Of a stretch of 64,000 bases of DNA, positions 40,458 through 44,631 are shown piece by piece. The notes beneath the pieces were generated by a model. It was not told the origin of the DNA, searched no databases, and saw only the letters and a program-made list of their open reading frames with translations. The stretch comes from Myxococcales bacterium (GTDB taxonomy: Bacteria > Myxococcota_A > Polyangia > Haliangiales > Haliangiaceae), in the NCBI GenBank assembly GCA_016707895.1, contig JADJGV010000002.1, forward strand, positions 399,695-463,694, read 5' to 3'. Positions within the stretch are counted from its first letter, which is position 1. Each line of letters begins with the position of its first letter. The position numbers were made by a program, and so were the translations under genes.

Positions 40458-41747
40458 ATGCTCGACCCCGCCCGCATCGAAGACGTCCGTCGCCGCCCCG
40501 CCGCTGTCGCCCTCATCGACTCGTGGCAGGCCCTCGATCGTGAACGCAAGAGCGTGCAGTCGGAGCTCGATAAGCTGCGAGCGGAGCGCAATGCGGCCAA
40601 TGATCGCATGGCCAAGCTCGACAAGAAATCGGCCGAGTTCACCGAAGCGCGGGAGCGGCTCAAGGCGCTGTCGACGGACATCAAGGGCCGCGAGGCGACG
40701 TTCGGCGAGCTCGAGGCCCGCTGCGAGGCCGAGCTGCTGAACCTCCCCAACGCGCCCCACGCGTCGGTGCCCGACGGCGCCGGCGAGCACGACAACCGCG
40801 TCGAGGGCACCTGGGGCGCCAAGCCGGTGCTCGACTTCGCGCCGAAGGAGCACCACGACCTCGGCGTCGGGCTCGGCATCTTCGACTTCGAGGCCGGCGG
40901 CAAGATCAGCGGCGCCCGCTTCACGGTGCTGCGCGGCTGGGGCGCGCGCCTGACCCGCGCGCTGATGAACTACATGCTCGACCTGCATACCGGCGCCGGC
41001 TACGCCGAGGTGTGGCCGCCGGCGATGGTGCGCCGCTCGGCCTTGCGCGGGACCGGCCAGCTGCCGAAGTTCGAGGCCGACCTGTTCGCGATCAAGGGCG
41101 CGCTCGTCGAGGACGATCAGGCCAGCGATCGCGACCACGACCTGTTCCTGTCGCCGACCGCCGAGGTCCAGGTCACCAACCTCTACGCCGACCACATCTT
41201 CGAGCCGGGCGAGCTGCCCAAGCGGTTCTGCGCCTACGCGCCGTGCTTCCGCGCCGAGGCCGGCGCCTACGGCAAGGACACCCGCGGGCTCATCCGCCAG
41301 CACCAGTTCGACAAGGTCGAGCTGGTGAAGTTCGTCGCGCCCGAGGACAGCGACGCCGAGCTCGAGTCGCTGCGCGGCCAGGCCGAGGCGGTGCTGCAGG
41401 GCCTGGGCCTCCACTACCGCGTCGTCACGCTGTGCACCGGCGACCTCGGCTTCGGCAGCGCCAAGACCTACGACCTCGAGGTGTGGCTGCCCGGCCAGGA
41501 CGCGTACCGCGAGATCTCGTCGTGCTCGAACTTCGAGGCGTTCCAGGCCCGGCGCGCCAAGATCCGCTACCGCCCGGCGGTCGGCGACAAGCCGCGCGCG
41601 TGCCACACGCTCAACGGCTCGGGCATCGCGATCGGCCGCACGCTGGTGGCGATCCTCGAGCAGTACCAGCAGGCCGACGGCTCGGTGATCGTGCCGCCCG
41701 CGCTGCGGCCGTACGTCGGCGGCGTCGAGCGCATCACCGCCGCGTAG
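40458..41747 (+). CDS. serS: Seryl-tRNA synthetase
   Basis: N-terminal coiled coil. Class II motifs (FRAEAG...[27 protein letters not shown]). Confidence 0.95.
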
Positions 41748-41766
41748 GCCGCGCGGCGCGCGCGGG

Positions 41767-42996
41767 TCAGAACTGGCCCGACAGCGGCGAGGTGTCGGCG
41801 CGGCCCGGGCTGTCCAGCACCCAGGTGCCGAGCGCGAACAGCCCGACGCCGAACCCGAGCGTGAAGCCCGACATCGTGCACATCACGCCGCGGTCGTCGT
41901 CGTCGCTGGTCAGGCAGGGGATCGCGAAACCCGCGCCGATGACGCCGTAGAACACCCCGCCCATCCGGGACAGCCCCGCGAGGTTCCAGCGCGACGTCGT
42001 GTGGGCCTTCACCTGGACGCCGCCGACCGCCGCCCAGTCGCGGAGGTTCGGCAGCTGCACGCGGGTCGTGCGCGACAAGATGCTCGACTGCTCTCGCAAC
42101 AGCAGCGTGCGCGACGGATCGAGGCGCTGGGTGCACGGCGTCGCGCAGACCTTGTGACCGTCGACGACCACGTCCCACGTCGTCTCGGGCTCGGCCGACA
42201 TGAGCTGCACCTCGATCGGCCCGCCGGCGGCCGGCGGCGGTCGTCCGTAGGCGAGCTGACCTGGTCCGCCGGTGGGTTGCACCGACATCAGGAACATCTG
42301 GATCGGGGACGCGCAGCTGGCGTCAGGCGCGGCGTCGGTCGAGTTCGCGCACGACGCGGCCTCGCCCGCCCGGCGGATGATCGACTTGCTGGCGGTGCTG
42401 GTGGCGTTCGCGGCCCCGATCGTGTGGACGCTGGCCTCGAGGCTGGCCGTGGTGGTGCCACCAGCGGCGAGCTGGTAGGCGCCGATCGCGAGCCCGCCGA
42501 CGACGTGGGTCGCGCCCTGGCAGTCGCCCTCGATCGTCGGCATCGCCCCGGGCGCGATGCCCAACCGGAACTGGCCGGCGATCGTGGTCTGCATGGTCAA
42601 GCTGCCCGAGCCTTGCAGCTCGCCCGCCAGCGACGCGGCGCCGAGCGGCAGCTTCGCGTACAGCTCGTCCTGGTTCCGGATCTCGATCCAGTCCGACGAC
42701 GGCGTGGTGCGCACCCAGTAGTACGGGTCCTTGGTGCGGCACTGCGTGAGCACCGTCATCGTGCAGCCGGTGAACGAGACCACCACGCCGCTGCCCAGCC
42801 GGATCTGGGTCTCGAGGTTGGCCTTCTCCGCCGCCGGCCACTCGGTGACGAGCGGCTGGTCTTGCCCGACGGCGTTCCGGCAGCGCGTGCCTTCTCCCGT
42901 CAGGGTCGGCAGGCTCGGCTGAGAGACGATCGAGACCGGCCGGCAACCGGCCACCGCGAGCACGAGGACGACGAACGCACCCTTGGCCGCTCCCAT
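41767..42996 (-). CDS. Hypothetical lipoprotein with C-terminal TM helix
   Basis: MGAAKGAFVVLVLAVAGC lipobox. Confidence 0.45.
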   Translation of the reverse strand: MGAAKGAFVVLVLAVAGCRPVSIVSQPSLPTLTGEGTRCRNAVGQDQPLVTEWPAAEKANLETQIRLGSGVVVSFTGCTMTVLTQCRTKDPYYWVRTTPSSDWIEIRNQDELYAKLPLGAASLAGELQGSGSLTMQTTIAGQFRLGIAPGAMPTIEGDCQGATHVVGGLAIGAYQLAAGGTTTASLEASVHTIGAANATSTASKSIIRRAGEAASCANSTDAAPDASCASPIQMFLMSVQPTGGPGQLAYGRPPPAAGGPIEVQLMSAEPETTWDVVVDGHKVCATPCTQRLDPSRTLLLREQSSILSRTTRVQLPNLRDWAAVGGVQVKAHTTSRWNLAGLSRMGGVFYGVIGAGFAIPCLTSDDDDRGVMCTMSGFTLGFGVGLFALGTWVLDSPGRADTSPLSGQF

Positions 42997-43040
42997 CGTG
43001 CCGAGCGTACCACCGGCCACCACCCGGTCGGTCGGTTTCG

Positions 43041-43430
43041 TCAGGGGGCAGCCAGCGCCAGCGCCGTCATCACCGCGGTCAGCCGCGCGAGCTCGTCGGC
43101 GTAGTCGGCGGCGCAGCGCCGGCCGTAGTCGTCGTCGCGGGTCGCGAAGTGGGCGAGCTGCCGCTGCGCGACCGCCGTGGCCGCCGCGGCCAGCGCCCGG
43201 GCCTGCTCACGATCGAGCCGGTCGAGGCTCGGCGCGTCGGCGACGTAGCCGATCTCGTTGTCGTGGTCGCGAGTGTAGCGAAACCACGCGCCGCAGCTCG
43301 CGCACTGGCGCAGCTCGCCGTAGGGCTCGGAGTAGGGCAGGTGCGAGCCGCCGATGATCGCCAGCTGGTCGGCCTGGTCCGGGGTGAGGCCGTCGCAGCG
43401 CGGGCAGGGTGAGGGCTGGGCCGGCGGCAT
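43041..43430 (-). CDS. Small zinc-ribbon-like hypothetical protein (129 aa)
   Basis: CPRC ... CASC cysteine pairs. High GC3. Confidence 0.35.
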   Translation of the reverse strand: MPPAQPSPCPRCDGLTPDQADQLAIIGGSHLPYSEPYGELRQCASCGAWFRYTRDHDNEIGYVADAPSLDRLDREQARALAAAATAVAQRQLAHFATRDDDYGRRCAADYADELARLTAVMTALALAAP

Positions 43431-43578
43431 CGCCGCGATTGTATCGACGGGGCCACCTGGCCGCCCGGGGCCGTGGTGGCGGCAGGTTGGGGGGGCGTTC
43501 GAGGGCCTAAAATCCCGCCACTAGATCCTTTACAAGCGAAGGGCCCTCCATATACTGCGCGTCACCTCTGGGCACTCT

Positions 43579-43661
43579 GGAGGAGTGGCCGAGCGGTCGA
43601 AGGCAGCGGTCTTGAAAACCGCCGAGCGAAAGCTCCGGGGGTTCGAATCCCTCCTCCTCCG
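43579..43661 (+). tRNA. tRNA-Ser (anticodon TGA)
   Basis: Acceptor GGAGGAG/CTCCTCC. Anticodon stem GCGGT/ACCGC with loop CTTGAAA. Long variable arm. T-arm GGGGG-TTCGAAT-CCCTC. Confidence 0.85.
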
Positions 43662-43733
43662 CAAGGCTGACAACCGAATAGCTCGATCGTCGTTTTCTTT
43701 CTCGCTCGTCCATCGGGTCCGCCGATGGTCGAA

Positions 43734-43824
43734 GGAGAGATGGCCGAGTGGCTGAAGGCACCGGTTTGCTAAACCGGCGTATGGGGGATTCCCTGTACCG
43801 AGGGTTCGAATCCCTCTCTCTCCG
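43734..43824 (+). tRNA. tRNA-Ser (anticodon GCT)
   Basis: Acceptor GGAGAGA/TCTCTCC. Anticodon loop TTGCTAA. Long variable arm. T-arm GAGGG-TTCGAAT-CCCTC. Confidence 0.85.
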
Positions 43825-43892
43825 CTGACTTGGCCGCTGCGAGCGCTCCGTACCGCTCGTGTCCGCTTCTCTATGTCCTAGCTTTTGTGTTT

Positions 43893-43965
43893 GGATCCGT
43901 AGCTCAATGGATAGAGCACCGGTCTACGGAACCGGGGGTTAGAGGTTCGACCCCTCTCGGATCCG
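43893..43965 (+). tRNA. tRNA-Arg (anticodon ACG)
   Basis: Acceptor GGATCCG/CGGATCC. Anticodon stem CCGGT/ACCGG with loop CTACGGA. T-arm AGAGG-TTCGACC-CCTCT. Confidence 0.85.
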
Positions 43966-43968
43966 CTG

Positions 43969-44631
43969 ATGAGCATCGACCCCGTCACCGATGACGACCT
44001 GATGCTGCTCGCCCTCGAAGAGGCGCGCGCAGCAGGGGCCCATGGCGACGTGCCGGTCGGCGCGATCATCGCGGTGCCCACCGACGGCCGCTACGCGGTC
44101 ATCGGGCGGGGCCACAACCGCCGCGAGCAACGTGGCGATCCCACCGCGCACGCCGAGATCGAGGCGCTGCGCGCCGCCGCCGCCCACCTGGGCCACTGGC
44201 GGGTCGAGGCCACGCTGGTCGTCACCCAGGAGCCGTGCCCGATGTGCGCCGGCGCGCTGGTCAACGCCCGCGTCCGCCGCCTCGTCTACGGCTGCGACAA
44301 CCCCAAGGCCGGGGCCGTCGCCAGCCTGTTCACCATCTGCACCGACCCGCGCCTGAACCATCGGCTCGAGGTCGTCGCTGGCGTCCGCGCCGGCGAGTGT
44401 GCCGCCGAGCCCCCTCCGCGCGTGTTGATCCGTGCACCCGGTGCGCGGTGCGTGAGCCCGGGACGTTTTCCCGGGCGTGCTTCTGTAGTGTCTGGAGAGG
44501 TGACCGAGCGGCCGAAGGTGCACGATTGGAAATCGTGTGTATCGAAAGGTACCGAGGGTTCGAATCCCTCCCTCTCCGCAACGGTCACGACCGCGACGAT
44601 CGAGCTACACCCGATTTATGGTCCCGGGTGA
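43969..44631 (+). CDS. tadA: tRNA-specific adenosine deaminase (CDA fold); the annotated 3' end reads through the tRNA-Ser(GGA) gene
   Basis: HAEIEAL and PCPMCAGAL zinc-binding motifs. The core ends about ...AGECAA (near 44410). The ATG lies 4 nt after tRNA-Arg(ACG). Confidence 0.75.
   Translation: MSIDPVTDDDLMLLALEEARAAGAHGDVPVGAIIAVPTDGRYAVIGRGHNRREQRGDPTAHAEIEALRAAAAHLGHWRVEATLVVTQEPCPMCAGALVNARVRRLVYGCDNPKAGAVASLFTICTDPRLNHRLEVVAGVRAGECAAEPPPRVLIRAPGARCVSPGRFPGRASVVSGEVTERPKVHDWKSCVSKGTEGSNPSLSATVTTATIELHPIYGPG
44494..44578 (+). tRNA. tRNA-Ser (anticodon GGA)
   Basis: Acceptor GGAGAGG/CCTCTCC. Anticodon stem CACGA/TCGTG with loop TTGGAAA. Long variable arm. T-arm GAGGG-TTCGAAT-CCCTC. 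Confidence 0.85.

Follow-up and report, generated by a model that had tools for sequence, protein, structure and literature searches.

In Escherichia coli, thrU-tyrU-glyT-thrT-tufB is a mixed operon that contains both transfer RNA (tRNA) genes and a protein gene. We examined a comparable arrangement in a 64,000-nucleotide (nt) stretch of DNA from a Myxococcales bacterium (NCBI assembly GCA_016707895.1, contig JADJGV010000002.1, positions 399,695 to 463,694), which has a GC content of 73.7% and is hereafter called the window. Within this window, tadA, the gene for the enzyme that edits A34 of tRNA-Arg(ACG) to inosine (I34), is embedded in an array of tRNA genes that ends with ffs, which encodes the small (4.5S) RNA of the signal recognition particle (SRP). 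As in the tufB operon, several tRNA genes and a protein gene appear to be under one promoter, and the tRNAs would be cut from a common precursor. In contrast to tufB, which is preceded by a conventional leader containing a ribosome-binding site and occupies the 3' end of its operon, tadA is internal, begins 3 nt after a tRNA, ends 5-47 nt before the next tRNA in relatives, and shares its array with the SRP RNA.

Two other described systems resemble this locus. In the tRNA punctuation of mitochondria, as in the array, a coding sequence is flanked by tRNAs, such that tRNA processing would set both ends of the message, and the start codon lies at or a few nucleotides from the processed 5' end, with the A of CCA and the A of ATG even shared in some relatives. 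The array differs from the mitochondrial case in that it involves a single gene on a bacterial chromosome, in that the stop codons are complete in all relatives except at one locus (L017; related loci are numbered with the prefix L), and in that the processing proposed for it is a prediction from sequence. The second system is the conserved bacterial neighborhood serS ... tadA-ffs(scr)-dnaX-ybaB(yaaK)-recR, exemplified by Bacillus subtilis, which shares with the array an upstream serS, the placement of tadA beside ffs, and a downstream dnaX-ybaB-recR group (of which the ffs-dnaX-ybaB-recR part was tested here). Unlike this neighborhood, the Myxococcota locus has five tRNA genes interleaved, and the window further features a 12.9-kb insertion between ffs and dnaX as well as two open reading frames (ORFs) between serS and the array.

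An earlier note on the window had proposed a serine/selenocysteine decoding cluster, comprised of selB, serS, three tRNA-Ser genes, tRNA-Arg(ACG), and tadA, in which the enzyme is made together with its own substrate. Our analysis leads to a different reading, to which we assign a probability of approximately 0.75: the locus is a conserved RNA-gene operon that has been damaged in this assembly by a private 166-bp deletion, which is probably an artifact or a defective allele, and selB is an unrelated neighbor.

The RNA genes of the array all lie on the plus strand. Using ARAGORN and Rfam, we identified tRNA-Ser(UGA) at 43579-43662 (58.2 bits in Rfam), tRNA-Ser(GCU) at 43734-43825, tRNA-Arg(ACG), which is the TadA substrate, at 43893-43966 (43965 in Rfam), and tRNA-Ser(GGA) at 44494-44579. 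Rfam also detected ffs at 44615-44709 as a bacterial small SRP RNA (RF00169) with a score of 63 bits, above the gathering score of 40, and with model positions 1-97 of 97 covered; this gene had gone unreported in the earlier note. The tRNA-Arg(ACG) gene does not encode CCA, with its discriminator G at 43965 followed by CTG, and the ATG of the deaminase ORF at 43969 is located 3 nt past that discriminator and 2 nt past the ARAGORN end, which is essentially the 4-nt distance that had been reported before.

Consensus scans for promoters and terminators across 43000-45000 suggest that the array forms a single transcription unit. A sigma-70-like promoter (TTTACA-16-TATACT; 43529-43556, plus strand) located 22 nt before the first tRNA gene is the sole promoter-like site in this range, and the sole strong terminator is an intrinsic one directly after ffs (44709-44750, plus strand), which comprises a 14-bp stem followed by a T run. 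Neither type of element was found by these scans between the tRNA genes and tadA. The promoter is identical in close relatives, and the same hexamers are found in L011 and L028, whose TadA proteins show 68-69% identity; terminators with stems of 12-14 bp directly follow ffs in L007, L011, and L028. Furthermore, the 3-nt junction between tRNA-Arg and tadA is too short to accommodate a promoter or a Shine-Dalgarno site. We infer that tadA has neither its own promoter nor its own ribosome-binding site. The inference that tadA is co-transcribed with tRNA-Arg(ACG), which the earlier note had called almost certain, is well supported by anatomy and comparison, namely by the single promoter and terminator, the 3-nt junction, and the conservation described below.

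In the intact operon, one promoter would drive tRNA-Ser(UGA), tRNA-Ser(GCU), tRNA-Arg(ACG), tadA, tRNA-Ser(CGA), tRNA-Ser(GGA), and ffs, and one terminator would end the unit. RNase P and the nucleases that form tRNA 3' ends would excise the RNAs and thereby free a tadA message, which would have a leader of 0-3 nt, be translated as a leaderless mRNA, and in relatives carry a 3' tail of only 5-47 nt. Related genomes are consistent with this proposal. Among the matches listed, we sampled 80 species-level genomes, and in 13 of these the first in-frame start codon of tadA is positioned between -1 and +2 nt from the end of the upstream tRNA, including five genomes in which an encoded CCA and the tadA ATG share their A. 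At the other end of the gene, the tadA stop codon often falls 5-15 nt before the next tRNA, as observed at many loci. Taken together, these abutting or overlapping start codons suggest a leaderless tadA mRNA that would be released by tRNA processing. If tRNA processing does generate the ends of the message, the array would represent a conserved equivalent, in bacteria, of the tRNA punctuation of mitochondria and a natural source of leaderless mRNA produced by processing rather than by transcription initiation, and synthesis of an essential tRNA-modifying enzyme would be tied to the flux through RNase P. We found no relevant publications that describe tadA as part of a tRNA operon or that treat tRNA punctuation in bacteria, which does not by itself prove that the arrangement is undescribed.

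Two features of these junctions were observed along the way. The overlap between CCA and ATG (ccgccATG) occurs at approximately position 2890 of L011 and, at the junction of tRNA-Ser(GGA) and tadA, in L012, L023, L052, and L071; at such a site, a single precursor molecule can give rise to the mature tRNA or to an entire start codon, but not to both, unless CCA is re-added after cleavage. In L017 (2532-3122), which belongs to a metagenome-assembled genome (MAG) of Bradymonadia, tadA retains an intact C-terminal helix and its stop codon lies 32 nt inside tRNA-Ser(CGA), either because the coding gene and the tRNA gene naturally overlap or because the MAG contains a sequence error.

The order tRNA-Ser(UGA)-tRNA-Ser(GCU)-tRNA-Arg(ACG)-tadA-tRNA-Ser(CGA)-tRNA-Ser(GGA)-ffs recurs in all array-bearing loci of Myxococcota and Bradymonadia that were recovered. 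By synteny based on tblastn, the tRNA array is preceded by serS in every myxobacterial relative, and both the upstream serS and the downstream ffs-dnaX pair are present in Kofleriaceae, Polyangia, and Bradymonadia; ffs follows tRNA-Ser(GGA) in 13 related loci. The adjacency of tRNA-Arg and tadA is beyond chance, as tRNA-Arg(ACG) directly precedes tadA in every array-bearing locus of Myxococcota and Bradymonadia. The layout that places the enzyme beside its substrate is nonetheless lineage-specific, because a tRNA-Arg(ACG) directly upstream of tadA was limited to 8 of the 80 listed species, all of which are Myxococcota or Bradymonadia. In another 13 species, all of them Acidimicrobiia or other Actinomycetota, the gene directly upstream is tRNA-Ser(GGA), which results in the arrangement tRNA-Ser-tadA-tRNA-Ser, and the commonest partner overall is a tRNA-Ser(CGA) within 300 nt downstream of tadA on the same strand (47/80). 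Therefore, the synteny check that the earlier note had called for upheld the array within Myxococcota and Bradymonadia, but substrate adjacency is not general, and serine tRNAs take that place in most lineages sampled. A tadA gene embedded in an operon of tRNAs and 4.5S RNA nevertheless appears to occur in at least two phyla.

These comparisons bear on the proposal that the locus is an adaptive cluster for serine and selenocysteine decoding in which the placement of tadA beside tRNA-Arg(ACG) serves to couple production of the enzyme to that of its substrate. Consistent with this proposal, serS and the serine isoacceptor genes, of which there are four in intact relatives, occupy one locus that is conserved across Myxococcota, and tRNA-Arg(ACG) abuts tadA in all array-bearing members of that phylum and is also found less than 1 kb from tadA in L055, L076, L078, and L085. 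However, most sampled lineages flank tadA with serine tRNAs rather than with the substrate tRNA, and because serine tRNAs, ffs, and dnaX accompany tadA across lineages, inherited synteny is sufficient to explain the layout without any enzyme-substrate logic. The selenocysteine component is also not supported by the position of selB (30876 to approximately 32780, where the start is approximate; minus strand), which was identified from its translation and from a match to the equivalog model TIGR00475 (292.9 bits against a cut-off of 242.25). This gene for the selenocysteine-specific elongation factor lies outside the operon, on the strand opposite serS and 7.7 kb away from it, with five unrelated genes between them that encode an acyl-CoA ligase, a 1356-residue protein with zinc-ribbon and tetratricopeptide repeat (TPR) domains, two small ORFs, and an extracytoplasmic function (ECF) sigma factor. 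ARAGORN and Rfam detected no tRNA-Sec gene (selC) in the window, and no family match to SelA or SelD was found among the approximately 40 window ORFs scanned, in agreement with the earlier note. We conclude that selB is a genuine gene and an unlinked neighbor of the array, and we consider the adaptive decoding cluster to be doubtful. The genes named in that proposal are present in the window, but with selB on the minus strand, tadA broken, and a fourth tRNA-Ser gene lost. "Serine-decoding locus" is a fair description of serS together with the four serine isoacceptor genes of the intact array. The serS gene itself (40458-41747, plus strand; Pfam Seryl_tRNA_N and tRNA-synt_2b) encodes a seryl-tRNA synthetase that is identical to MBK7192208.1 and MBK7075145.1.

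Returning to the damaged operon, we used L086, a locus in NCBI assembly GCA_964269055.1, as the intact reference for tadA. Across window positions 43500-44800, L086 and the window are 100% identical except that the window lacks one cleanly bounded block of 166 bp. Alignments and an exact base count place the deletion junction, GCCGAG|CCCCCTCCGC, at 44409-44410 on the plus strand, with at most 1 nt of microhomology at the breakpoints. The lost bases comprise the final 45 nt of tadA (14 codons, LKRFFEALRAQGQR, and the stop), a 47-nt spacer, and nt 1-74 of the 84-nt tRNA-Ser(CGA), of which only the final 10 nt, corresponding to the 3' acceptor strand, remain at 44410-44419 by alignment to L086. 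The three serine isoacceptor genes that had been described as all of them are not the full set of this lineage; relatives have four. The spacer between tRNA-Ser(CGA) and tRNA-Ser(GGA) is intact (44420-44493, plus strand) and 100% identical to that of L086; it holds the hairpin GCCCGGGA-CGTT-TTCCCGGGC, which has now become part of a read-through ORF.

The deletion is private to one assembly. All of the approximately 25 related loci that reach the deletion point are intact (L001-L009, L011, L013, L017, L028, L034, L086, L088, L091, L092, and L098-L101), which include near relatives with overall DNA identities of 98.3-99.7% (L088, L091, L092, and L098) or 99.8% (L099) as well as more distant loci from Kofleriaceae, Polyangia, and Bradymonadia. 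A sister MAG (IPH44_, MBK7075145-148) encodes a SerS identical to that of the window and an intact TadA (MBK7075148.1). The MAG from which the window derives (IPH80_06960/06965; proteins MBK7192208-210) has no TadA protein on record. Exact matches to the deletion junction numbered 0 in metagenomes, compared with 4 for the intact sequence, and the window contains no private substitutions in 9246 compared columns. Because the lesion would be costly, is accompanied by no substitutions, and is found in a single assembly whose sister assembly is intact, the deletion most likely represents an assembly or consensus error or a defective, unfixed or very recent allele rather than a functional arrangement.

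The consequence for tadA is visible in the ORF of 220 codons at 43969-44631 (plus strand) that the earlier note had taken for the gene. This ORF contains all of tRNA-Ser(GGA) and ends at a stop codon within ffs (44629-44631). Alignment and family models indicate that only its first part, 43969-44409 on the plus strand, corresponds to tadA, namely codons 1-147 of a 161-codon gene, and that the final 73 codons span the spacer and tRNA-Ser(GGA) before running into the 5' end of ffs. In agreement with this boundary, the third-position GC that serves as the coding signal of this genome collapses beyond approximately 44400, the match to the TadA model ends near residue 146 and leaves the last 20 or so profile positions uncovered, and the residues after ...GECAAE (E147) continue as PPPRVLIRAP.... 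The remaining portion carries the zinc-site motifs of the cytidine-deaminase fold (HAE at residues 61-63 and PCPMC at 89-93) and matches the Pfam families MafB19-deam (107.5 bits) and dCMP_cyt_deam_1 (83.2 bits), both over the cut-off. For NCBIfam NF008113, which has a cut-off of 150, the window ORF scored 127.9-129.2 bits and the intact L086 allele scored 140.4 bits. The best matches in the PDB are all TadA structures, with 2B3J (8e-35) followed by 7CPH, 2NX8, and 1Z3A. The closest public proteins show 95-97% identity across the first two-thirds of the ORF, are 161 residues long, and end with ...ECAAELKRFFEALRAQGQK/R; the exact 220-residue protein is absent from a collection of 15 billion proteins.

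The segment that is missing from the window corresponds to the C-terminal helix, which features the motif L..FF..LR. This motif is nearly invariant in an alignment of 14 sequences, and the helix is present in L086 and in 13/13 aligned relatives. The lost segment aligns to the C-terminal helix in the RNA complex of Staphylococcus aureus TadA (2B3J), including an FF pair that aligns with F145; the role of that helix and of F145 has been addressed previously (PMC9643335), and the C-terminal helix of TadA interacts with the anticodon stem-loop (PMC8216470). A review of base editors does not mention truncation of TadA. We also considered a frameshift or homopolymer error at the run of C residues (GAG CCC CCT) and rejected it, as the DNA alignment shows a 166-bp gap rather than an indel of 1-2 nt. 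On these alignments, the ORF at 43969-44631 is best described as a truncated tadA (residues 1-147) that was fused to read-through sequence by the deletion, such that the designation of the whole ORF as tadA does not hold. The 220-residue "tadA" should not be annotated or analyzed as a protein, and the tRNA-Ser set of the window should not be regarded as complete.

The lesion would affect two decoding functions. Codon counts from 25 window ORFs showed that CGC makes up 65% of arginine codons (62.7 per 1000 codons), with CGU, CGC, and CGA together accounting for 72%, and that TCG, the codon of the deleted tRNA-Ser(CGA), makes up 48% of serine codons; CGC and TCG are the most-used arginine and serine codons here. 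In E. coli, the conversion of A34 to I34 has been reported as essential (PMC11472039). The same source reports that Streptococcus pyogenes TadA additionally edits tRNA-Leu(AAG), which means that the restriction of bacterial TadA to tRNA-Arg(ACG) stated in the earlier note is not universal (PMC11472039). Any protein made from the deleted allele would be without the C-terminal helix and hence without its contact to the anticodon loop. In addition, there is no in-frame stop codon from 44410 to the RNase P site at 44494, which suggests that the tadA message from a processed transcript of this allele would end without a stop at that site. Non-stop messages are substrates for ribosome rescue by transfer-messenger RNA (tmRNA) (PMC8012679), and the message of the deleted allele, if transcribed and cut at 44494, would likewise be a substrate of this rescue, with the difference that its hypothetical non-stop state would arise from a genomic deletion combined with tRNA processing rather than from mRNA damage.

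The array region also varies in ways that are distinct from the deletion itself. Strains that are at least 98% identical (L086, L088, L091, L092, L098, and L099) have spacers of 5, 12, 27, or 47 nt between the tadA stop codon and tRNA-Ser(CGA), and the final TadA codons vary among them as QGQR, QGQK, or RGEK. The 47-nt spacer (L086 8999-9045) shares ACCCGGTGCGCG...CCGGGACGT with the spacer before tRNA-Ser(GGA), a similarity suggesting that a unit comprising a spacer and a tRNA was duplicated long ago. Recombination or assembly collapse between the spacers before tRNA-Ser(CGA) and tRNA-Ser(GGA), both of which in L086 contain ACCCGGTGCGCG and C/GCCGGGACGT, was rejected as the origin of the gap; the breakpoints lie outside such repeats, within tadA and the acceptor stem. 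L092 had seemed to share the deletion in a blastn table, where its tRNA-Ser(CGA) was paired with the tRNA-Ser(GGA) of the window; L092 is intact. Near position 41749, just past the serS stop codon, a change in the length of a CG repeat is the sole other difference private to the window in approximately 9 kb, and it reflects either a small sequencing or consensus error or genuine repeat slippage. Finally, the 1356-residue zinc-ribbon/TPR protein (window 34449-38519) is split into ORFs of 232 and 1119 residues in L089 (7841-11895) due to a 16-nt gap relative to the window, which indicates that GCA_964269055.1 has an indel of its own elsewhere.

Several points weigh against our interpretation of the locus, some of which concern the deletion. 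There is no flanking repeat of the kind that misleads assemblers, and the spacer touched by the deletion genuinely varies in length among strains with identities of at least 98%, which makes a real deletion variant plausible. Assembled sequence would look the same under a real deletion and under an assembly error, and the copies of tadA and tRNA-Ser(CGA) assessed are those of the window. An unlikely alternative is that the deletion is genuine and fixed, in which case the organism would have a TadA without its C-terminal helix and would be without tRNA-Ser(CGA). TadA would then be produced either as the read-through protein of 220 residues or, with rescue by tmRNA, from a message that has no stop codon; UCG would be read by tRNA-Ser(UGA) through wobble, and the decoding of CGC, CGU, and CGA would depend on residual activity of TadA or on another copy elsewhere. 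In support of a fixed deletion, the gap is present in the sequence as given, on a contig of 790 kb according to protein look-up, its breakpoints have no repeat that would account for mis-assembly, and the region is a hot spot of indels among near-identical strains. The tadA stop codon 32 nt into tRNA-Ser(CGA) in L017 further suggests that overlap with the downstream tRNA can be tolerated, and supD strains of E. coli are viable even though their sole tRNA-Ser(CGA) gene has been turned into a suppressor by mutation. However, the deletion is confined to one assembly, with the sister MAG and approximately 25 related loci intact and a junction that matched no metagenome; it deprives an enzyme with a reportedly essential function of a nearly invariant helix that contacts RNA, and it affects the decoding of the two most-used arginine and serine codons; and the flanks show 0 substitutions relative to L086, which leaves no time for compensation. 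We therefore regard a fixed and viable genotype as improbable, and it seems quite improbable that a free-living myxobacterium decodes CGC, which constitutes 6.3% of its codons, through a helix-less TadA made from a stop-less message while it reads UCG without a cognate tRNA. If such a genotype did exist, it would reveal unexpected slack in two decoding functions that are usually held to be near-indispensable.

The other opposing points concern how tadA is expressed. Co-transcription, the generation of the 5' and 3' ends by processing, and leaderless initiation are all deduced from the DNA, and NCBI annotation starts TadA at Met12, which yields proteins of 150 residues. Met12 is invariant in the 14-sequence alignment, and a start at this codon (44002) would be compatible with tadA being expressed independently from a promoter within tRNA-Arg or its upstream spacer, which would make the tight junction meaningless. 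We consider independent expression to be very unlikely. Met12 aligns with a conserved residue within helix 1 of the solved TadA structures, which extend further upstream, and the 11 codons ahead of it are conserved as protein (T/E-D-D-D/E-L/F-M) across Kofleriaceae. Moreover, the scans found no promoter-like site in 43557-44000, no Shine-Dalgarno-like sequence precedes 44002, and in L100 the abutting ATG has become GTG with the frame kept. These features favor the start at 43969 and, with it, expression of tadA as part of the RNA-gene operon.

Insertions flank the array on both sides in the window. Between serS and the first tRNA gene, two ORFs of 409 and 129 residues without family matches (MBK7192209.1 and MBK7192210.1; 41767-43430, minus strand) represent an insertion that is specific to this strain group; L001-L003 have nothing at this position, and L005 has a pair of ATP-binding cassette (ABC) transporter genes. 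The gap between serS and the tRNA genes thus appears to be an insertion hot spot. On the other side, Pfam matches and synteny delimit an insert of approximately 12.9 kb between ffs and dnaX (44751-57640), which looks like an inserted island. It contains an ORF without family matches (44875-46782), a Phd/YefM antitoxin gene (47897-48199), a PPK2 gene (48543-50489, minus strand), a pair of SpvB/TcdB/FG-GAP/RHS toxin-like genes (50488-57578), and a FabK-like gene. The conserved downstream partners of ffs, dnaX (57641-59506), ybaB (59448-59831), and recR (60738-61379), were identified with Pfam on the plus strand beyond this insert; in relatives, ffs and the dnaX-ybaB-recR group are 0.05-1.8 kb apart. 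Placement of dnaX directly after ffs in the window was considered and rejected, as the ORF at 44875-46782 is found there instead and dnaX follows 12.9 kb on.

Elsewhere in the window, four genes for eukaryotic-like Ser/Thr kinases lie within 14 kb on the minus strand (12593-14392, 14398-16194, 16676-19528, and 24803-26806), and an IS200-like Y1 transposase gene is located among them at 20876-21673.

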